Of a stretch of 64,000 nucleotides of DNA, positions 33,135 through 45,701 are shown piece after piece. The notes beneath the pieces are model-generated. The model was not told the DNA's origin. It did not search any database and was given only the letters and a program-made list of their open reading frames with translations. Source of the stretch: a virus (lineage: Duplodnaviria; Caudoviricetes); IMG/VR virus record IMGVR_UViG_3300033273_000833, positions 1 to 64,000 of that record; one strand, written 5' to 3'. Made by a program: the position numbers and the translations under genes. Within the stretch, counting starts at the first letter, position 1; each line of letters opens with the position of its first letter.

Positions 33135-33140
33135 GTGTAA
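33135..33140 (+). promoter_or_regulatory. GTGTAA motif
   Basis: 9 nt upstream of ATG 33149, heading the operon that contains the giant gene. Confidence 0.65.
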
Positions 33141-33148
33141 TATTCTAT

Positions 33149-34300
33149 ATGAGTATTGCGCGATTTAGTGATCTTCCAGAAAAAAATAATCCATCAACAG
33201 GAGATTATGTTGTAGGTTATGAAAAATCTTCATTTATGGATGAAAAGAAGTATTCAATAAAAGAATTATTCTCTTTATACTCCTCACTAGATCAAGAAAT
33301 CTCAGGTAAGCGAATTTTTCATAATATTGAATACGCTGGAGGTCTTACTATCGACGATATTTCAGGCGTAGATAAACAAGTTTCAAAAATCGTCAAACAA
33401 ACCCCTATAGAATTTATTGGCGAAGCGGATGGTTTTACGACTCCTAGAGCTTGGATAAATGAAATACATTACGATAATAGATGCGTAGACATAAAAGAGT
33501 TCGTAGAAGTCTGTGGGCATACAGGTCTAGACCCAAGAAGATTAACCATTATACATTATAAGTCAGATGGGTACATGTACCAAACCCATCAATTTTGCGA
33601 AAAAGATGGATGCGTCGATCCAGAGCCTTTTGCTTACACGCTAACAGGAACATCATTTGAAAACGTTGTCGGGGACTTTGGTTTTGAAGCAGCGCCAATG
33701 TCTGGGATATCTAATGATACTGACTATGGTTTTGCTTTAGTTTATGACTACCAAGAAACTGGAGAAAGAGTCTTGCAATTAATAAGTTATGAAGGTAGTG
33801 GTCAACAAATTTCTTTTGTAGCAAAAGACGGCCCTGCGTCAGGGATGAGATCCCACGACATTATAGCTATCCAAGACCCAGATGTTCAAGAAATTTTATG
33901 CGAAGAATTAAGAACTCTTCAGCTTTTTGGCACAGGTAATAGATATTCTGATTTTGAATGGAGATTCCCAACAGAGCATCAATTAGAAACAAGCGGATAC
34001 TTAAACCACGATCAAGGATTCAAAACTATAGATGGAGATAAAGATCGGCTACCTTTTGAATCAAGGCTTGGAGTTAACACAAAAAACCCCTTAGATACAT
34101 TACATGTTAAAGGGGGGATCACAGCAGAGGGTAATTTATTAATTTATGGCCCCGACTCAGGACATTATGGACAACACAGAAAAACTCTAGTTAGAATTGA
34201 AAACCTACCTTCAGAACAAGACTTTCATAATATACCACCAAACACGCTATATAGAAGTGGACATCATTTAATGGTAAAACCAACAGACTTAAGAGACTAA
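33149..34300 (+). CDS. Putative virion protein containing a lamin-tail-like (LTD) domain
   Basis: RFSDLP...GDYVVG fibre-type N-terminus; WINEIHYDN...EFVEV...LQLISYEG...DGPASG...DI matches LTD-like domains of secreted nucleases; LGVNTKNPLDTLHVKG fibre motif. Confidence 0.6.
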   Translation: MSIARFSDLPEKNNPSTGDYVVGYEKSSFMDEKKYSIKELFSLYSSLDQEISGKRIFHNIEYAGGLTIDDISGVDKQVSKIVKQTPIEFIGEADGFTTPRAWINEIHYDNRCVDIKEFVEVCGHTGLDPRRLTIIHYKSDGYMYQTHQFCEKDGCVDPEPFAYTLTGTSFENVVGDFGFEAAPMSGISNDTDYGFALVYDYQETGERVLQLISYEGSGQQISFVAKDGPASGMRSHDIIAIQDPDVQEILCEELRTLQLFGTGNRYSDFEWRFPTEHQLETSGYLNHDQGFKTIDGDKDRLPFESRLGVNTKNPLDTLHVKGGITAEGNLLIYGPDSGHYGQHRKTLVRIENLPSEQDFHNIPPNTLYRSGHHLMVKPTDLRD

Positions 34301-34301
34301 A

Positions 34302-34736
34302 ATGGGACCAATACTAAATACAATAATAGGAGCGGGAATAAAAATAGGAGTTAACCTTATTAACGCTTGGTTAATGCAAAAGCATCAAGCTCAAATGTTG
34401 ATGGCGGCGAGAGACCAAGCTTTAGTAGAAGCGTTACTTAAAAATCAATCAGAACAAGCTAAAGATCCTTTTGTTAAAGTAACTAGAAGGGTTTTATTCA
34501 TGAGTATAACATTCACTATGTGCTTTCTGATGATTTACTACGCCTTAAACCCTGGAATTTCATATGATGTAATAGTACCTAAAGGTGATGGAGCTAGATG
34601 GAGTATTTTTTCTTGGATTTTTGGTGGAAAAGAATGGGAGATGGTTCAGATGACAGGAGGGCTACTTTTAAGTTCTTTTTTTGATCTTTGTTTTATGGTT
34701 GTGGGTTTTTATGCAGTACCCAGTAAAATGAGATGA
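34302..34736 (+). CDS. Holin-like membrane protein
   Basis: 144 aa, amphipathic N-terminus and two hydrophobic segments (VLFMSITFTMCFLMIYYAL; LLLSSFFDLCFMVVGFYAV). Confidence 0.5.
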   Translation: MGPILNTIIGAGIKIGVNLINAWLMQKHQAQMLMAARDQALVEALLKNQSEQAKDPFVKVTRRVLFMSITFTMCFLMIYYALNPGISYDVIVPKGDGARWSIFSWIFGGKEWEMVQMTGGLLLSSFFDLCFMVVGFYAVPSKMR

Positions 34737-35032
34737 AATACTTAATACTAATAACACTACTTTTATCATCTTGTTTTTCAGCTAATATAAAAAACAGTAA
34801 AAATTACATTAAAGATGAGACTATAACTTTAGAAACAATAGACACAAACCGAGACGGCAATTTATCTATATCAGAAATTAATTCATTTAAGAGACAATCA
34901 ACATCAAACAAATCAGATCCATTCAAGATATTTTTAGTTTTAATTAGTTTAGTTTTATTAATATCATCGTCTCCTTATGTAATAAATTCAATTAAGAATA
35001 AGTATGTCTCTAAGAATAAACAGAAGGAATAA
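34733..35032 (+). CDS. Lipoprotein with EF-hand and C-terminal TM helix (unimolecular-spanin-like topology)
   Basis: Lipobox LSSC (C14); DTNRDGNLSISE EF-hand loop (residues 37-48); hydrophobic 66-84; basic tail. Confidence 0.6.
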   Translation: MKYLILITLLLSSCFSANIKNSKNYIKDETITLETIDTNRDGNLSISEINSFKRQSTSNKSDPFKIFLVLISLVLLISSSPYVINSIKNKYVSKNKQKE

Positions 35033-38000
35033 TTTTCTAGAGATCAAAGAGGGTTCTAATTTAAAAATATTCAGAGCCCCAACTAGAGACCCCAATCAAA
35101 TCCCTGATCATGATTTTGCATACCACTTAGGCTATCATAATGGAAACAATTATGGCCTATCATCAAACCCACAATTTCATGTTAATTCTGACAGCGAATA
35201 CTATAGCAGCTCTGCGCTAAAATTTAATGGCACTGAATTTTTAGAGAGTAAAGAAATTAATCTATTAAACAAAAACAGTTTTTCTATTTCTACATGGGTC
35301 AACACAGAATCAGAGTTAGAAGAATTCCTAGTAACTGATGTAGATTCGTCAGGCGACGGTTCATTTTATTTAAAATCTAATAACGCCAGCGGTAGGCCAG
35401 AATTTGGAATATATAATGGAGTTAATGAGTTTGCATATGTAACTGGAAATAGTGGCATAAATGATGGTGATTGGCATCTAATTAACATTAATTTTAGCTG
35501 CGATAAACCAAACGAAGAAGTTTCTATAGAATTATACATAGATTCTTTTCTTCAAGAATCAAAATCTCTTAGCGGGATTCTTCATTTAGATTCTTTGTCT
35601 GGTAACGGCTTATGGGAAACAAGAAAACTTGAGGCTTCAAAATTAACAGACGACGATCAAACTTCATACATAGAAATGACTAACAGTCAAGAAGAATCAG
35701 ATCTGTATTTCGCTGAACCAATCACTGGAGGGATAGATAAAATAAGGTATCGAGCCATCAATGACGAAGCTAACTTTGGGGAAATCAAAACCTCATTAAT
35801 ATTAAAAAATAAAGACACGTCAGAAATTTCGACATGGGAACTCCAATCTTTCAAAAGCTCCAACTTTGATAACCAAAAAGCAATCAGCAACCCAACCCCT
35901 TTATATTTTGGACAAACTCCATTTCCACCACCCATACCAGAAAAAGGAATATCTTACGGCCCAGTAGAAAGCGTCTTCACCGCAGGCTGCCCATCAGAAT
36001 GCTTGTCGTATGATAATAGTTTGAAAACTTGGTTTCCAATACAGGATTACAGCATTTCATCGCCTCATGCAAGTAGAGTTATTATAAATATCCCCACAAT
36101 AAAACAATATGTATATGCTGGAAGCCCAAAAATTACAATCCAAGCAGGCGGAGTTTTTACGATTTACAGCAGCCACATAAACTCAAGCACAACTTTAAAC
36201 GTTATCTTTCTACCAATTGGATCCACCCCAAGCCTGACAGTAAACGAAACAACTAATACCATAGATATATCATACCCAAAAAGAAATTCATATTTTAGTT
36301 CAACAGATCCAGCCCTAGTAGATATACTAAACTTTATTAATAATCAAGATAACTTTACAGCAACAACAACAGCTACGACTTACTATAAAAATCAACCCAT
36401 GCGTGGATTAAATGACGGATCATACCAAGCAACAGATGAAACTGAATCCACAAACCCACAAGCCCATTATCCACTAAGAGCTGAAGACGCAAGAGATTAC
36501 GAAACAAACAGCTCTGGCGACGTCATCAACCACGAAGAGCAATATATATACGCAAACTTCAACACCTGGCAAACTGAAGCTCCCTTTCTATATGGACACG
36601 ATTGGGACTCGGCAAACTTTACAAACTACGAAATACTAGGTATTCGCTATCATTACAGCTCAGAACTATCAAATAGCTCAACAAATGGGATGACATTTTC
36701 AAGAATCATTGAATTTGGACTATACTTAAATAACACAGAATATGATTTATGGACATTTCTTCCCCTCAATAACTTTTCAGGATTAACTTCCAATATAAAC
36801 AATCAAAATAATTTCACAATAGGATCGTCTTCTTCAAATAACAAAGAAAAGTTTTATAAAGGAGAAATAGATCAATTAATTATTTTTGATAAAACAATCT
36901 CTCAAGATGAAATAAATTTTTTATATAATAATAATAGAGATAATGTATCGTACTCGAAAGAGCTAGCTGAAGACATGAAGGTAATTTCTTGGTATGACTT
37001 TGCTAATTCCGAAATTGTTGGATGGGACAGGCATTATAGAAAATCAGAAAAAAATGTAGCAAGACTTTATCACCTAAACAACACCAGAAAAGACTCAAGT
37101 TCATATGCAGTATTGCCTGAAGAATTTGGCGATATACAATATTCTAATGATGTTTTTAAGTTTTCTGATTATTCTGCATATTTCGACGGAGAAACTTATT
37201 TATTCGACGAAGGAGGTAAAGAACTTTCTTTTCATGGGAATTTTACAATAGATGTTTTCTTAAATTTTGCTCAAATACCAGGCGCAGACAGACAGGAGTT
37301 ATTAAGAACAAATCATTTCAAAAAAACAGGAACAAGTTTAAGTATTTATTTCCAAAACAATAGGTTATATTTCGACATGTATTTAGGTCTCAAGCAATTC
37401 ATGTTTATAGAAAGTAATGAGCTAGATATTTCTACTGACATTTTTTTTCATGTCGCAATATGTAGAGACAGGGAAAATGTTTATCTATTTTTTGATCGAA
37501 AGATTTGCGGACAAGCATCATTCCCATATTACCTACCAATTGATAACGCTTCAGAAGGTTTATATATTTTTAATGAATTTAATGGGTATGCTCAAGATTT
37601 CAGAATTATTACCGAAGCTTGTTTATATCAACCTGAAAAAGATATTGATGAGTTTACCAATAGGCTTAGTTCCGAATTTTATGAAAGAAACATTTTAACC
37701 ACTACATCACACTATCCAATAACTAAAAAAGTAGAATTTAATGATAGTGACGGCATATACATACCGTCAAAACATTTCATCGAAACCGCTCATGACCACA
37801 AAGCGTTTAATTTTCATAAAAACAGTTTCTCAATAATTGGCTGGTTCAGATTAGAAAACTTAATTAAATCTGGCTTCATATTAGGCTCCTGGAACGACGA
37901 AGGGGGAAACAGTCATAGTTACGCAATTAGGTACGTTAAAAACTTCAGAGACCAAGTAAACACTTTGGTGTTTCTCGCATCTGAAGATGGTACTAACTTT

Positions 38001-41000
38001 AGATCCGTTAGAACAATTAAGTTAAAAAATAATATAATGCGATCCGATAGATGGTATTTTTTCGCAGTAACTTATGATACTAATACTCAAAAATTAAAGT
38101 TTTTCTTATACGATCAACTTAGCTTTATAGATTCAAGCGAAGGTTTAGTAAATCAATTTTTTACTATATCGAGAAGAGACGACTTCCAAATTAATGGAGT
38201 AAAACACACCGAAGAAAGTGATACTTTTTTAGATATGTCTTTATCTCAATTATTCTTTTTAAACAAGCCAGCCTCTTTAGCTGAAATCGAGTCCTTCTGG
38301 AATTCTGGGGGAGGAATAAAATACAAAGAATCAATAGACTTAAATCGCTATGTTATAGCTTGGTTCGATTTCCCAGAAGGCTCCTTATTAGACCTACACA
38401 ACCAGAACCATTTAACTTCTTCTACAGCTTTTACAATTACAGAAGGTAGACGTAAGTTAGAAGCTAAAGATGATGAGGCTGAGATATTTTTAGTAAAGCC
38501 AACTATAGGTAATAATATATTATTTAATCTAGCTGAACATCGGCCCACATACGAAACTAACGGTATAAACAATCTACATTCTTTGCAATTTGATCAAACA
38601 AAAACCCCCTTCTTAGACTCTAATTTTACTTTAAACTTTAATACAGATTTTTCTTTTTATTTTTGCTTCAAATCTTCTGGAACAAATTCAGAGTTTAGGC
38701 CAATTGTAGATTTTTCTAATTCAGCAACACAGGGGCTATCAGTTTTATGGAAAGATACTCCAGAATCAAACTACCCAGGAATTTTAAAATTAATTGTAAA
38801 CAATCAAGAATTAGTATTTGAAAACGAACCTTTTATTAGAGACATAAATGTTGTAAACATAGAATGGAACAGAAAGAAGGAAAGAGTATTTTTATCATTA
38901 AATAACTCTAGACTTTCATCAGCTCCAAAGTCTCTAAAAAATACAGCAATCCATTTAAATTTTTCACAGACACCCATGTCTCTAGGCAAGTTTTATTATG
39001 ATAGCGAAAACGAATTAGGTAATTTCAACGGATTCCTTTCTGAGATATTATACCACTATGGATTAGCTCAAGTAGAAACACTTCAGTATTTTTCAGACAA
39101 ATATAACGCAATTCATCCTGGCACTAGCCCAGAGTATATATATGACGATGATGAACCTGCTATATTTTTTAATGTATCACAAATTAAACAATACATACAA
39201 GAAGGAACTAGCTATCTAGGAAGAATTCAATGCTCTCTATCAAATCCTATTTACTCAACAATTGAAAATAGCAATATTACAATTAACGAAAATGGAGACA
39301 TCTATTTAATAAGTCCAGCAGATAGAGATATAGATTCGTATCAGTATACAGTCATAACTTCAGACCAAGACTCAGATATTGAACAGTCTATGAGCTTTAT
39401 CACTTACGTTCAAAAGGACACGGTCATAGCTACTGTAGATACTAGTAATATCAAAACATTCTTAGCTGACAATGAAACCTCAAAAGGGACGGATTTAGGC
39501 TGTTTATCAGCCAACGAATCAGTCACATGGTCAACTCAAGATTCTTTGATAACAATAAACCCATACAGCGGCTGCATTACATTAAATGAAGATATTCCAC
39601 CTGGTACAGAGTCTATAGACTTTACAGTTTCAACATTAGATACAGAGGAAAACATTACTTCGTCAACAATAACCTTAACAATCTACAATCCAATAAGATC
39701 CTCTGAGTTAATATTTAAAAGTTCATACCCAAGTCCCACAATTGAACTAGATTATATACTTGAACCTGGGCAAGAATATATCGAAGTTGACTTCAATGAC
39801 GGCTTAGGCTACAGGTTAGTACATTACAATAATTTAACTTCGCCTATACCATCAAACTTTAGTACAGCAAACATTTTTCACAAAAACTCTCAAATATACA
39901 GCAACTACTTAAACAGCAATTATTGGAACGATTTTAATAAGTCGATACCCTTAATATCTTTACAGGATATCGCCTATCATGAATACGAAGAAAACTCTTT
40001 CGAGCAAGAATCCAGAGTTAAGTCTTATCAATTTATTAATAATTGGCAAGAATCAGATGTGCCAGAATCAGAAAATCTTTACCAAACTTTTAAATTCTCA
40101 GATATAAATCACTCAGACTTTAGTAATGCTCAAAATATAATCAACAATCTAAGTTATAAAATTGACAGGCAGTACCTAGAAGACGAAGATAACATTAATT
40201 ACAATGACAGGCTAGTATGGAGAAGAATTAGATTCACCCTATCCTCTAATCACTACTTTAAAATCAGAGGCAAATTTATATCCCTAAACGCAAGGCGTTA
40301 CGGATATAACGAAGGCGTCGATACGGGTTCTGAAAATCTAGCTGAACTAACTTTAATAGCCGATGAAGACTCAGTTCTGCAAAAGACATCATTTAATGGT
40401 TTTGACATCTCAAATCTTACATTAAATATAGAAACCGATCAATTAGTTGATTTAACAAAGTTTTTACAAGGATGTCGAATTGCAGACATTTCAATAATTA
40501 ATTTCAATACTTCAAATGTACTATGTATGTCAAATTTTGCTTCGAGAATGTACAGCAAAAATACCGTAGACCCAAGTGACTCAAGTCGGTCATTATTACC
40601 TATAAAAAATTTAATACAAAATGACATAGATTTTTCAAATGTATTAACTATTGATAGATTTTTATACGATTCACATGATTTTACCTACTCAAGCCAATTC
40701 AACGCAACACTTATTAATGGATACCAAGAAACCGATGTAACATCCTGCGAAGAAAACTGGGATCAGTGGCTGTTGGATAATAATAGTAACCACGAACACG
40801 ATATTAATTTATCCCAAGCCGATTTCAGCAATTTACTATCTATGAGTGAATCCTTCAGGGGCTGGTGTTCAAATTTTCAAGTCATATTTGATACTCAAAC
40901 TACAAAGACTTATACAAAAGTAAAAAATATGTACAGATGCTTCAGCGAGTGCCAGATCGGCATACATCCAATTTTATCAAATATAGTTAAATTCGTCTCT

Positions 41001-44000
41001 TTATCCAACTATAACCATAGTAGCATTTATCCTACCCAACAAAAAATTGTATCATCATTATCTTATAGATCAAGTGAATACGCTACAGATTATTCATACA
41101 GCAGCTATAGGTCGGAAAGAGACAATTATTTCTTTTTCGAATATTCAGACGAAAGAGTGATTAAGACGACTTATGGCGATACAGGTACAATTATACATAA
41201 CAACAAAGTTTATTCAAATAGCGCAAATCATTATCTACCAGAACTACAAGTCACACCAGTATTAATACCTTTTTTCACAAAAACAACAGTAGATTTAAGC
41301 TTATTCACAAATGGACTCAAAGATATTAGTTATCTATTTAGAGAGTTTTATAGTTTTTCTGATATTAATTTCACAAACCAATTAAAATCAACAAATTTTT
41401 CAGAAGTTATTGATATTAAAAAACTTTTTACTTCTAGTTTCTTGATTCAAAATATAACATTTCCAAATAATTCTAACCTAGCTCCCTCAAACATCAAAGA
41501 TTCCTCAGCTATGTTTAGCGAATGTTACACTTTAAAAAATGTTAACAATTTCGAATACATGTCTATACCAAACTCTGAAAGTTGTGAAAACATGTTTTAT
41601 TATTGCGTAGACCTCAAATCCATAAAAATACCTCACTTAAATAAAGTAAAGTCTCTACATAGAATGTTTTATCATTGCATCAATCTATCATTAATAGAAG
41701 GCTCTACAGATGCATTTGGATACGGAGGCCCTAACTCTACAGGTTTAATTGATCTAGAGGACGGCTCAGAATGCTTTTATAAAAATGAAAAATTAAAAAC
41801 CTTAAACTTATCTAATATAACTTCAACTAAATTATCAAATATTAATAAAATGTTTTATGGTTGCAGAAGACTTTCATCGATTTATATTGGAGAAACATAC
41901 GTCAATGAAGGATCAGCATCTAATAGTGATAAAAATTTCTACCTAGGTAATGTGACCACTGCGAATTTAGCCTTTTTTCAATGTGAATTCTTAAGATGGT
42001 TCTGTCGAAAAGGAGAAAATATTTTTGACATAGAAAGAATTAATTTGCAAAATTGCTCCAGTGCGGTAGGCATCTTCAGATATTGCTTTAGACCTCTTTT
42101 TCTAGACCTTCAAGATGTTATATTAAACCCTTTACGAAGCACTAATACCTACGACTACCCAAATGATATAGGAAAATTCTTACAACCAATAAGCTTTTGG
42201 GATTTTTCGCAAAGCTTAGAGGATAATCTATTAGAAGCCTGCACATATCCAGATAAGTATTCAGAGCTGGTTGATTATTTTTTTCAAGAACAAGACTTAC
42301 TAGACTCTGGAGATTTTGATCTCGCGAGTAAACCTCCTGTATTTAAAAAAGGTACAGAAGTTTCGAATTTCCCTCAAGCCGAAATAGAAGGGTTAGTAGA
42401 CAAAGGTGATTTCAATATTGAAATCATACTTGCTCACAACAGCTCTTTTGATTTAAGATACATAAAAGCGATAATCTCGCCAAACTACGAGCACTATGAT
42501 TTGTTCCTAAACTCACTAACAGACGGAACTTCAATCAATACAGTTAGAATTTTCTGGACTTACTCCACCCACCCGAACGAAAGTTCTATATTAACCAACC
42601 ATTTCGGCACGAGCGCAATTACTCCTTACGAATTTTTTATAGCTCAAGGAGGAAATTACGAAGGAGAATTATGTATCTTTATAAAAGATAGAAACTCAAC
42701 CGTTCAAGATATAATCGAAGCTAATCGGGGTCCAGGCATCAAATTTGAAACTCTGCTTGATGTAGAAGCAGATCCTATCGGCACCTTAGACCTAGACGGG
42801 TCTCCTCAATACTCCTCAGGGAGCTTAAGTAATAGCTCAAATTCTTCATACATTTCCGCTAATTATGCAATTAAGCCTTGGTTTACCTACCGAAGCAATT
42901 TAATTTTAGATTTAAACGAAAACTCTGGAATTAATTTAGCTAACGCTTTTAGAAACTGCACCCTTATTGAAAATGTATTCATAAAAGGCTCTTCAGCAAA
43001 AATAAATAATTTTTCTGGAGCCTTCGGTCACAACACATCACTCAGGTATTGTGACACATCTAGCATAAATTTCTTAGATAATTACACAAGTGAATCTGCT
43101 TTTTTTAACTGCTTAAACCTTAGGCAGGTCAATCTTGGTTCTAATTTCTTACCTCAAAATAATCAAAATAGAAACCTAAGAAGTATGTTCATGTATTGTG
43201 ATTTTTTAGTTAAAATAGATAATGATTGTGCTGATTGGTATGGACCAAACTTAAAAACAATAGAAAACTTGTTTAACAGATGTAGTTTATTAAAGCAAAT
43301 TAATCTATCCAACTTAAGTCCAGTAAAATGTAAATATATGGATTTTGCTTTTCTTTCTTGCACAAGCCTAGAATCTCTCGATTTAACAAACTTCAACAGC
43401 CATAAACTGCAGTCTTTAAAGAGCGCGTTTAGCCACTTATCTTTAAAATCATATTCAGGTCTACTAAATTACTATTACAACCCATCAGCTCTTAGATTAA
43501 ATTACCTACCTTCTGCAAAAATAATTCCTTATACTATTGCATATGAAGACATACTCTACAACTCAAACACAAATACGTCTGTATTTTTTAGTAATTCCTA
43601 CCTAAATATGCTAAGAGAAGGAGATAGATTCACAGAGCTTTTCTCATGCGCTTCAAAATTTGGTCCACTTAAATTCGAAATCCCCGAATTACACAACATT
43701 TCATCAACGCGCGTAGATCTTGATTTATCCAGCCTGGATTTATCGAACGTAAGAGACGCGACCTCACTAGATTCGCTTGATGGAAGCTTGGGTTATAGTA
43801 GCTCCTATGTAAGATACGGCATAGCCAGGAACCCAGACGATACCTTTGATATAGAAGCTCTACACTCTAGAGGCCTGTGGAGACACGATGACTATAATTA
43901 TATCTCAGAAAATACATTAACAATAAATAGTGAAGGAGAAATTACTTCTATAGAAGAACCATTATATATATCAAACTATAACAGTAATTACGAAGACAAT

Positions 44001-45701
44001 CTTGACCATCAAAATTATCTCACTTACACTTATGGTACATTATATACACTTTCGTTAAATCCTAGAGCTACCGAGATGAATCCATACGACAGAGAAGCGA
44101 CAACAGATGATATTATAAACAGCGCCTCAGACCCAGATCTCGAATACCAATCAACAGAAAAAGGTTTTAACGCGGGCAACGGCGCCAGAATGAATGATTC
44201 TCGTGGTTACAATAATGATCGACACCCAGAAACGACTTTACTATCAAACGGCTCGAATGCTCTTTCTAATCTTTTTTATAATTCAAAAATTAATAATTTA
44301 AAAATAGGAGGAAGTTTTGAGATTCCAAACATTGAACCGACTTTAAAAACATATGATTACGGACATGGTATAAATTTTAATTCAGATGCCGATAATTTTT
44401 TTAATTTTGAAAAAAATTCAAATGATCCAAGTTATGCAGCAAGTAACCCTTACTTTTCTGATGAAAACCACAGTAATAAATGGAGCACAAGCGTTAGGGG
44501 GGTTAGAGCTCCAAGTCCATTATCAATGTTTCGTAGTTCGTATATAAATAACCTAGAAATATCAAATAATTTCCTTCAGTCATGTGAAAAATCTTATGCT
44601 TTAACCGCTATGTTCTATATGGCTAACATCTCAAGTTCGACAGGCTTAGATTTTACAAAACTCAAGACAGATAGCGCAATTTATATGGATCAACTTTTCT
44701 TCGGATATAACGGTACAAACATAAACACCTCCACATTCAAAACCAGCAAAGCTGTAACGATAAAAAATCTTTTTTACAACATCTATAACATATTTAATCA
44801 TAATATAATTACAACAAGCTGGGACACGAGCAATGTCAAGAATTTTGAACACGCTTTCGCTTGGCCCGCAACTACAGGAGGCTCAAACCAAACAGAAGTA
44901 GATAGCATTCTATCCACCTTTGAAATCAACCTATCGGGACTTTCATTCAATTCAGCAGAATTAATTAGAGGAATATTTTGGTACAATAATATTAACTACA
45001 TGATACTACCAACAAATAATTTATTAAGACCTTCTTCTAGAAAAATTTTTACACTAAATAATGTATTCGCAAATTCTGGACGATTTGGTTCATCGACGCC
45101 GTATTCCTTTGCCTTGCCACATTCAAATGAAGATATATTGACAAAAGTTAACGCTTTTTTAAGCTTTCTTGAGCCAGGGCTAACCAATAGAATATCCCTT
45201 AACTCAGCTTTCAATGCTCTAACTCCAGGTAATCAACAAACTACTGAAGATAACCCGACTTACGGATATTACAACACAGACAACAGCTCAAGAAGATCTC
45301 AGCCATATATTTTAGATTTAACGCCTATTGTAGGCAAGTCTATAACGTCATTATATTCTACATTTTTAACATATTTTGGCGGACAGCTAGCAAAGTCTCC
45401 TTTCATAACATCTATCACTAACATTGAGAATTTGTCATTTGACGAAGAAGTAGACGCCTATGACCTATTTAGCGCACTCAGAAGAGTCCATCCAGATTTA
45501 GCAATGAATTTATCTTCTTGGTGTTTGCCTAACGTAGATTATACAGAAAGCGATTTTTTTGATCAAAACAATATACACAATAGCCCTCAGGCCCCAATAT
45601 ACAGCTTTGTAGTATCTGATAGTCAAGGCGGGTATCACGAAAAATCTTCTGCCGCTAATGCAGGAGTTACTTTACCTAATTTTGGTGAACCTTGTGCATA
45701 A
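35004..45701 (+). CDS. Giant 3565-aa multidomain protein: about four LamG domains, cadherin-like repeats, BspA/DUF285 leucine-rich repeats
   Basis: LamG patterns (FSISTWV..WH, FTIDVF..FHVA, FSIIGWF..WYFFAVTYD, FNGFLSEI); LRR units such as WDTSNVKNFEHAF and FKTSKAVTIKNLF; C-terminal NLSSWC...P.FG..C typical of DUF285 proteins; no signal peptide. Confidence 0.75.
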   Translation: MSLRINRRNNFLEIKEGSNLKIFRAPTRDPNQIPDHDFAYHLGYHNGNNYGLSSNPQFHVNSDSEYYSSSALKFNGTEFLESKEINLLNKNSFSISTWVNTESELEEFLVTDVDSSGDGSFYLKSNNASGRPEFGIYNGVNEFAYVTGNSGINDGDWHLININFSCDKPNEEVSIELYIDSFLQESKSLSGILHLDSLSGNGLWETRKLEASKLTDDDQTSYIEMTNSQEESDLYFAEPITGGIDKIRYRAINDEANFGEIKTSLILKNKDTSEISTWELQSFKSSNFDNQKAISNPTPLYFGQTPFPPPIPEKGISYGPVESVFTAGCPSECLSYDNSLKTWFPIQDYSISSPHASRVIINIPTIKQYVYAGSPKITIQAGGVFTIYSSHINSSTTLNVIFLPIGSTPSLTVNETTNTIDISYPKRNSYFSSTDPALVDILNFINNQDNFTATTTATTYYKNQPMRGLNDGSYQATDETESTNPQAHYPLRAEDARDYETNSSGDVINHEEQYIYANFNTWQTEAPFLYGHDWDSANFTNYEILGIRYHYSSELSNSSTNGMTFSRIIEFGLYLNNTEYDLWTFLPLNNFSGLTSNINNQNNFTIGSSSSNNKEKFYKGEIDQLIIFDKTISQDEINFLYNNNRDNVSYSKELAEDMKVISWYDFANSEIVGWDRHYRKSEKNVARLYHLNNTRKDSSSYAVLPEEFGDIQYSNDVFKFSDYSAYFDGETYLFDEGGKELSFHGNFTIDVFLNFAQIPGADRQELLRTNHFKKTGTSLSIYFQNNRLYFDMYLGLKQFMFIESNELDISTDIFFHVAICRDRENVYLFFDRKICGQASFPYYLPIDNASEGLYIFNEFNGYAQDFRIITEACLYQPEKDIDEFTNRLSSEFYERNILTTTSHYPITKKVEFNDSDGIYIPSKHFIETAHDHKAFNFHKNSFSIIGWFRLENLIKSGFILGSWNDEGGNSHSYAIRYVKNFRDQVNTLVFLASEDGTNFRSVRTIKLKNNIMRSDRWYFFAVTYDTNTQKLKFFLYDQLSFIDSSEGLVNQFFTISRRDDFQINGVKHTEESDTFLDMSLSQLFFLNKPASLAEIESFWNSGGGIKYKESIDLNRYVIAWFDFPEGSLLDLHNQNHLTSSTAFTITEGRRKLEAKDDEAEIFLVKPTIGNNILFNLAEHRPTYETNGINNLHSLQFDQTKTPFLDSNFTLNFNTDFSFYFCFKSSGTNSEFRPIVDFSNSATQGLSVLWKDTPESNYPGILKLIVNNQELVFENEPFIRDINVVNIEWNRKKERVFLSLNNSRLSSAPKSLKNTAIHLNFSQTPMSLGKFYYDSENELGNFNGFLSEILYHYGLAQVETLQYFSDKYNAIHPGTSPEYIYDDDEPAIFFNVSQIKQYIQEGTSYLGRIQCSLSNPIYSTIENSNITINENGDIYLISPADRDIDSYQYTVITSDQDSDIEQSMSFITYVQKDTVIATVDTSNIKTFLADNETSKGTDLGCLSANESVTWSTQDSLITINPYSGCITLNEDIPPGTESIDFTVSTLDTEENITSSTITLTIYNPIRSSELIFKSSYPSPTIELDYILEPGQEYIEVDFNDGLGYRLVHYNNLTSPIPSNFSTANIFHKNSQIYSNYLNSNYWNDFNKSIPLISLQDIAYHEYEENSFEQESRVKSYQFINNWQESDVPESENLYQTFKFSDINHSDFSNAQNIINNLSYKIDRQYLEDEDNINYNDRLVWRRIRFTLSSNHYFKIRGKFISLNARRYGYNEGVDTGSENLAELTLIADEDSVLQKTSFNGFDISNLTLNIETDQLVDLTKFLQGCRIADISIINFNTSNVLCMSNFASRMYSKNTVDPSDSSRSLLPIKNLIQNDIDFSNVLTIDRFLYDSHDFTYSSQFNATLINGYQETDVTSCEENWDQWLLDNNSNHEHDINLSQADFSNLLSMSESFRGWCSNFQVIFDTQTTKTYTKVKNMYRCFSECQIGIHPILSNIVKFVSLSNYNHSSIYPTQQKIVSSLSYRSSEYATDYSYSSYRSERDNYFFFEYSDERVIKTTYGDTGTIIHNNKVYSNSANHYLPELQVTPVLIPFFTKTTVDLSLFTNGLKDISYLFREFYSFSDINFTNQLKSTNFSEVIDIKKLFTSSFLIQNITFPNNSNLAPSNIKDSSAMFSECYTLKNVNNFEYMSIPNSESCENMFYYCVDLKSIKIPHLNKVKSLHRMFYHCINLSLIEGSTDAFGYGGPNSTGLIDLEDGSECFYKNEKLKTLNLSNITSTKLSNINKMFYGCRRLSSIYIGETYVNEGSASNSDKNFYLGNVTTANLAFFQCEFLRWFCRKGENIFDIERINLQNCSSAVGIFRYCFRPLFLDLQDVILNPLRSTNTYDYPNDIGKFLQPISFWDFSQSLEDNLLEACTYPDKYSELVDYFFQEQDLLDSGDFDLASKPPVFKKGTEVSNFPQAEIEGLVDKGDFNIEIILAHNSSFDLRYIKAIISPNYEHYDLFLNSLTDGTSINTVRIFWTYSTHPNESSILTNHFGTSAITPYEFFIAQGGNYEGELCIFIKDRNSTVQDIIEANRGPGIKFETLLDVEADPIGTLDLDGSPQYSSGSLSNSSNSSYISANYAIKPWFTYRSNLILDLNENSGINLANAFRNCTLIENVFIKGSSAKINNFSGAFGHNTSLRYCDTSSINFLDNYTSESAFFNCLNLRQVNLGSNFLPQNNQNRNLRSMFMYCDFLVKIDNDCADWYGPNLKTIENLFNRCSLLKQINLSNLSPVKCKYMDFAFLSCTSLESLDLTNFNSHKLQSLKSAFSHLSLKSYSGLLNYYYNPSALRLNYLPSAKIIPYTIAYEDILYNSNTNTSVFFSNSYLNMLREGDRFTELFSCASKFGPLKFEIPELHNISSTRVDLDLSSLDLSNVRDATSLDSLDGSLGYSSSYVRYGIARNPDDTFDIEALHSRGLWRHDDYNYISENTLTINSEGEITSIEEPLYISNYNSNYEDNLDHQNYLTYTYGTLYTLSLNPRATEMNPYDREATTDDIINSASDPDLEYQSTEKGFNAGNGARMNDSRGYNNDRHPETTLLSNGSNALSNLFYNSKINNLKIGGSFEIPNIEPTLKTYDYGHGINFNSDADNFFNFEKNSNDPSYAASNPYFSDENHSNKWSTSVRGVRAPSPLSMFRSSYINNLEISNNFLQSCEKSYALTAMFYMANISSSTGLDFTKLKTDSAIYMDQLFFGYNGTNINTSTFKTSKAVTIKNLFYNIYNIFNHNIITTSWDTSNVKNFEHAFAWPATTGGSNQTEVDSILSTFEINLSGLSFNSAELIRGIFWYNNINYMILPTNNLLRPSSRKIFTLNNVFANSGRFGSSTPYSFALPHSNEDILTKVNAFLSFLEPGLTNRISLNSAFNALTPGNQQTTEDNPTYGYYNTDNSSRRSQPYILDLTPIVGKSITSLYSTFLTYFGGQLAKSPFITSITNIENLSFDEEVDAYDLFSALRRVHPDLAMNLSSWCLPNVDYTESDFFDQNNIHNSPQAPIYSFVVSDSQGGYHEKSSAANAGVTLPNFGEPCA

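Follow-up and report, generated by a model that had tools for sequence, protein, structure and literature searches.

Two small overlapping genes in a 203,067-bp single-contig virus record (G000) raise the question of whether they encode a holin and a unimolecular spanin (u-spanin), and whether an EF-hand loop in the putative spanin controls its action. The window analysed here comprises bases 1-64,000 of this record, which has a CheckV completeness of 100% and no end repeats. An initial annotation of the window had described the pair as a holin-like gene coupled to an EF-hand lipoprotein of u-spanin topology, had proposed that membrane fusion is gated by periplasmic calcium and had noted no endolysin.

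Architecture of the gene pair

The features of the locus are listed in Table 1. The two genes overlap, as annotated initially; they lie on the same strand and are joined by the sequence ATGA, in which the start codon of the lipoprotein gene overlaps the stop codon of the upstream 144-aa gene. The lipobox cysteine Cys14 (codon 34772-34774, with Phe as +2 residue), the C-terminal transmembrane (TM) helix and the basic tail following it were all recovered where the annotation had placed them. The periplasmic linker of the 99-aa lipoprotein is 49 aa long, and its periplasmic part is devoid of Cys. In a structure model of low confidence (pLDDT 72, pTM 0.33), residues 63-98 form a helix and beta strands are absent. 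The final 29 nt of the lipoprotein gene are shared with the next gene (start 35004), which is probably why the tail is near-invariant among close relatives. The 144-aa protein has an N-terminal amphipathic helix, a Trp-rich periplasmic loop between its two TM helices and a basic C-terminus, with basic residues both before TM helix 1 and after TM helix 2. Fold searches with the models of the two proteins gave no significant match.

Table 1 Features of the gene pair and its surroundings (positions in the window).
Feature	Position	Strand	Evidence or remark
GTGTA motif, putative phage-specific late-like promoter	33135..33139	+	9 nt before ATG of operon head (33149)
383-aa operon head, no family match, putative fibre-like N-terminus	33149..34300	+	outside conserved module
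144-aa holin-like inner-membrane protein	34302..34736	+	hydropathy, homologs, structure model
TM helix 1, residues 64-82, preceded by K/R residues	34491..34547	+	hydropathy 2.0
TM helix 2, residues 119-138	34656..34715	+	hydropathy
99-aa lipoprotein with C-terminal TM, u-spanin-like topology	34733..35032	+	ORF, alignment, hydropathy
Signal peptide II, lipobox LSSC	34733..34774	+	pattern match
Single EF-hand loop, 12 residues (DTNRDGNLSISE), periplasmic by topology	34841..34876	+	PS00018 match
C-terminal TM helix, residues 64-84, after conserved Pro	34922..34984	+	hydropathy 2.4
3565-aa LamG/DUF285 giant gene, overlaps lipoprotein tail	35004..45701	+	neighbour, outside conserved module

Conservation and genomic context of the pair

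A sequence search with the 144-aa protein yielded 925 homologs. With identities of 58-90% and a mean column identity of 83%, the protein is unusually conserved for a holin. No homolog was found in cultured phages, and species genomes contained only one homologous fragment. The lipoprotein, when used as a single query, retrieved 11 relatives. A family profile built from lipoproteins found downstream of 144-aa homologs matched 274 clusters at 50% identity, a total that takes in longer multi-EF-hand proteins matched via the loop. As family representatives, we took the 117 matches of at most 140 aa among the best 150 of the profile search. Among these best matches, 114 of the 117 carry a lipobox by pattern, 112 of these 114 a TM and 106 of these 112 a net basic tail. 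The linker measures 36-65 aa (median 51) and reaches 60 aa in 5/112, and Asp at the +2 position occurs in 0/114, the corresponding sorting rule being that of E. coli, from which the host differs. Lipobox, TM and basic tail are thus retained across a family with about 30% identity, and the Cys of the lipobox is invariant in the family alignment.

In order to describe the synteny, 80 IMG/VR loci around 144-aa homologs were read downstream. A gene of 73-111 aa with lipobox and TM lies directly 3' of the 144-aa gene in 62 loci, with the ATGA overlap in 61 of these 62 adjacent pairs. The remaining loci have a homolog within 5 kb (10), weak ones (2), a contig end too near (4) or none (2). Five of six distant profile matches also overlap a 144-145-aa homolog (58-68% identity). 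In some loci, including those of Gp23-bearing T4-like phages, the lipoprotein gene is found about 1 kb off on the opposite strand. The two genes are thus shared by two phage lineages, as they are found in T4-like phages that have Gp23 as well as in lambda-tailed phages that lack it. G000 contains lambda-type tail-tip genes, and T4 Gp23 was sought in this genome and not found.

The third gene of the cluster (L087:4663-5226), which follows in 58/80 loci, codes for a protein with an N-terminal TM and a GAF domain (TM-GAF; Pfam GAF, 7.6e-8). Basic residues after the TM suggest that the GAF domain is probably cytoplasmic; the protein could be a lysis-timing sensor. In G000, the TM-GAF gene is located at 156663-157229 beside its usual neighbours. 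The pair is found not at its usual position ahead of this gene (156.6 kb) but at 34.3 kb, which suggests a joint relocation of the two genes. The 383-aa operon head was found upstream of the pair in the three closest loci only. Beside the 144-aa gene, 11 loci of both lineages carry a gene for a lipoprotein of about 200 aa (L006:5432-6061, L029:5432-6064, L048:4351-4959, -) with an invariant DCDNFA, His and EPQ, which by pattern form a papain/transglutaminase-like triad. This protein had no match in Pfam, PHROG or PDB and is a candidate envelope peptidase; as an endolysin it was rejected, being absent from G000 and matching nothing.

With regard to expression, 34 of the 56 distinct upstream regions taken from related loci have the GTGTA motif 9-11 nt ahead of the 144-aa start codon. 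In G000, it precedes portal, tape-measure and tail genes, also nrdA and others, and is found within 25 nt upstream of 35/201 genes. It is probably a leaderless promoter recognised by the phage sigma factor (G000 157543-158322). In the T4-like clade, the upstream motif is TAA(A/G)TA, which resembles the T4 late promoter consensus. These promoter motifs suggest that the pair is expressed late; a host-type promoter is seen before 32007. From the combined data, we regard the pair as a real, widespread and previously undescribed two-gene membrane module, with lysis as its most likely function.

If the pair is not lytic, it could form a conserved membrane complex that targets a conserved host protein and serves in envelope remodelling or superinfection exclusion, or is associated with the virion. 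The mean column identity of the 144-aa protein does hint at a partner under constraint, small lipoproteins are common among exclusion factors, and neither an endolysin anywhere in the genome nor homology to holins was found (see below). However, late-like motifs instead of a host-type promoter are present in both phage lineages, exclusion lipoproteins are usually patchy whereas the lipoprotein described here is near-universal in its clade, and a holin gene followed by a lipoprotein gene is the typical order of lysis cassettes. We therefore consider a non-lytic function unlikely.

Comparison with known holins and spanins

The 144-aa protein has the layout of the holin class, i.e. it is small, has more than one TM and a charged C-terminus, and late expression is suggested by the motif. 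In the ESM Atlas, it reached a feature score of 0.95 to a cluster with 14% carriers of PF11351. It resembles these GTA_holin_3TM proteins (PF11351; RcapMu/phiM5 type) in its Gly/Ala-rich N-terminal amphipathic helix, soluble helix, two TMs and basic C-terminus, but its Trp-rich beta-hairpin loop is longer and its gene, unlike theirs, does not come after an endolysin gene. Neither hmmscan nor a six-frame search nor hhalign supported membership in PF11351; the hhalign value against GTA-3TM-type holins was 0.6%, no better than shuffles, in a comparison comprising 8 holins of one subtype and a shallow query profile. No holin family was matched in the Pfam and profile comparisons. We infer the term holin from topology and context.

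No conserved i-/o-spanin pair was found among G000 and its relatives G003 and G007. Apart from the 99-aa lipoprotein, no lipoprotein candidate is common to these three genomes, and no other has a mature TM. Among the G000 proteins considered as alternative spanins, 93004 is most likely the Endonuc_Holl match, and the lipoproteins 91206 and 139100 as well as the TM protein 109764 lack conserved counterparts in G003 and G007. A small protein of 73 aa, hydrophobic and encoded at G000 109562-109783 (L084:11562-11783), has 41-44% identity to its counterparts in G003 and G007 and represents a second small membrane core gene.

The lipoprotein shares with unimolecular spanins (T1 gp11 and the 13 families of PMC6139136) the N-terminal lipobox, the C-terminal TM and the place after a holin-like gene. 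It differs from them in its EF-hand loop, in the lack of sequence similarity and in the absence of an endolysin from cassette and genome. A comparison of the lipoprotein profile with T1, SIO1 and P12053L, in which the positive control worked, gave no match, and Pfam and PHROG spanins did not match the lipoprotein beyond the signal peptide. T1 gp11 has beta strands, whereas the model of the lipoprotein is helical; with neither sequence similarity nor a beta-rich domain in this low-pTM model, the lipoprotein falls outside the T1 gp11 family. Fully stretched, 36-49 aa span about 13-17 nm, which is less than an E. coli-type periplasm. The linker of 49 aa (family 36-65 aa) is below the 60-149 aa published for the periplasmic domains of u-spanins (PMC6139136 Table S2); helical families do exist in the same survey. 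The protein should be called u-spanin-like rather than be counted as a u-spanin.

In a second lytic reading, the lipoprotein is not a spanin and both of its anchors reside in the inner membrane, where it would act as an antiholin-like partner or timing regulator of the 144-aa protein, with TM-GAF maybe as a third, sensing component. A linker too short for known spanins, the coupled and roughly 1:1 translation with the 144-aa gene, the TM-GAF gene following in 58/80 loci and the rapid divergence of the lipoprotein, of which only the anchors are retained, all agree with such a partner. T4 with holin T and antiholin RI and phiKZ with its holin-regulator (PMC12894885) have lysis cassettes containing a single-TM protein with a soluble regulatory domain, and a rIIB-family gene as a further parallel to T4-like lysis is present in G000; the predicted topology of TM-GAF, with basic residues after the TM and a cytoplasmic GAF domain, is however opposite to that of T4 T, and homology was not detected. 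Against this second reading, a lipid anchor and a TM in one and the same membrane would be redundant, Asp never occurs at +2 (a weak point, as this is an E. coli rule), the genomes compared yielded no further conserved candidate for a spanin, and the pair and the GAF gene can be separated, as in G000. We consider an inner-membrane partner somewhat unlikely. The probable rIIA/rIIB-like pair of G000 (135577-139099; L086:1577-5096) is kept in G003 and G007 and occurs here in a lambda-tailed phage; a PHROG 'RIIB lysis inhibitor' match (E 4.5e-57) came from the batch containing its second gene.

The initial reading of a holin-like gene followed by a protein of u-spanin topology thus gains support from the coupling in 62/80 loci, the kept anchors, the lack of Asp at +2, the late-like promoter and the lack of another conserved spanin candidate, but not from homology: neither protein appears to be homologous to a known lysis family, and we infer the term spanin from topology and context.

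The EF-hand loop

The canonical 12-residue loop reported initially agrees with PROSITE PS00018, with ligands at positions 1, 3, 5, 9 and 12, Gly6 and a hydrophobic residue at position 8. A pattern of this type arises in shuffled 49-aa linkers at a frequency of 6e-4, and the strict pattern occurs once in the 64,602 residues of the genome's proteins. The loop scores below the Pfam cut-off (EF-hand_5, 18.3 vs 25.9 bits). Instead of belonging to a full paired helix-loop-helix, it stands alone, and its entering helix makes a single turn in the model. The weak fold matches of the lipoprotein model are calcium-binding EF-hand proteins (E 2.9-4). Among the 62 adjacent orthologs, the loop is strict in 10, has lost Gly6 in 21 and is absent from 31; L097 was labelled loop-less by pattern but carries a variant loop. 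We used this synteny sample instead of the profile matches, where the EF share (96/117) is skewed by the profile. Degenerate and loop-less orthologs keep lipobox, TM and coupling. In a midpoint-rooted tree of the 144-aa protein, the strict-loop loci are on deep branches, one supported clade (95/86) holds nearly all degenerate and all loop-less forms, and supported branches force at least 3 changes of the loop, which on this tree amounts to several independent losses. The loop thus looks ancestral and selected, yet dispensable in the family.

Since the EF ligands are retained at less than 30% overall identity, real calcium binding is favoured. The proposal that periplasmic calcium gates membrane fusion, i.e. 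that the fusion step of a unimolecular spanin is controlled by calcium binding to the loop, could draw on this retention, on a canonical loop far beyond chance that is basal on the tree and on the weak fold matches. It is not supported by the ortholog data, as the loop is absent from 31/62 and degenerate in 21/62 with several independent losses, while lipobox, TM and coupling stay intact, and as the motif is single and unpaired. Moreover, periplasmic calcium tracks the medium and is expected to be constant, and no shift in periplasmic calcium at lysis is known. A calcium gate is therefore highly improbable, and the loop is more likely a structural calcium site, possibly pairing two chains, than a trigger, which is also the simpler reading.

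A literature search returned no title or abstract on an EF-hand spanin. The T5 endolysin is an EF-hand-like calcium-binding lysis enzyme. So is LysGH15, as cited in PMC12730064. Both resemble the lipoprotein in having a single EF-like calcium loop in a lysis-related phage protein, but they are peptidoglycan hydrolases, whereas the loop described here is part of a putative membrane tether.

Search for an endolysin and probable host

At the sensitivity of the searches, an endolysin is missing not only from the window but from all 203 kb of the genome. Six-frame searches with 14 endolysin Pfam families, which covered G000 together with 4 to 10 relatives (four records, G000 included, being at least 90% complete), gave no match; positive controls were detected for 11 families, the negatives for GH108, GH19 and PF11860 are weak for want of such a control, and GH25 and CHAP were examined by motif only. 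Nor was an endolysin revealed by motif scans or by comparing 116 unannotated ORFs with Pfam (25/37 families among the matches listed). In G000, searches also failed to find an NlpC/P60 domain or a peptidoglycan hydrolase associated with the virion. The lambda K-like tail-tip gene of G000 encodes only 123 aa (85319-85690; L083:6322-6690, -) and is probably the source of the Prok-JAB match of this genome.

G000 carries host-derived DUF1549/DUF1553 and Tat-type DUF1501 genes at 104263-108243 (L084:6263-10240), and the DUF1501 gene is also present in G003 and G007. The phage DUF1501 protein shares 81% identity with a Verrucomicrobiota-labelled cluster, members of which sit on cellular contigs beside a tRNA synthetase; its identity to another cluster, labelled Opitutae, is 73%. 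The host probably belongs to the Opitutae (Verrucomicrobiota), the DUF1501 likeness being a clue to the gene donor and not an assignment of the host. At G000 93525-94487 (L083:14525-15484), there is a gene for a secreted protein resembling an outer-membrane beta-barrel and, alongside, one for a 79-aa two-TM protein; both are host-like by eye.

Subdivision-4 Verrucomicrobia were long described as lacking peptidoglycan; tested Opitutae strains do contain it, at a DAP level roughly tenfold below that of E. coli and with ornithine added (PMC5303756). Because of the peptidoglycan in these strains, lysis without any endolysin is no more likely than the presence of an unrecognised hydrolase. Our literature searches yielded no account of host lysis by phages of Verrucomicrobiota.

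Discussion

The best explanation for the pair, to which we assign a probability of roughly 0.45 and which is accordingly tentative, is a late two-gene lysis module of phages probably infecting Opitutae, consisting of a holin-like protein and a compact unimolecular-spanin-like tether. According to this explanation, the 144-aa protein would accumulate in the inner membrane with both ends in the cytoplasm and act as a holin. The 99-aa protein would receive its lipid at Cys14 and be sorted to the outer membrane, with its C-terminal helix staying in the inner membrane, and the short tether would draw the two membranes together in the fashion of a unimolecular spanin. The EF loop would bind calcium constantly in the periplasm and stiffen or pair the tether, as an optional element and not as a trigger. 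The peptidoglycan might be breached by an unrecognised enzyme or a host enzyme, or the wall might be too thin to need one. The further-reaching version, in which widespread Opitutae phages lyse without an endolysin, with nothing more than a holin-like protein and a very short unimolecular spanin stabilised by calcium, because the wall is thin and the periplasm narrow, is doubtful at present.

The pair is a cloneable lysis candidate common to two unrelated phage lineages, and the natural forms with and without EF loop provide a built-in test of the role of calcium. The missing endolysin points to either a new family of peptidoglycan hydrolases or lysis without one. Should the lipoprotein prove to work as a spanin, none in the published survey would be as short, and it would set a lower bound on the tether for fusion of inner and outer membrane.
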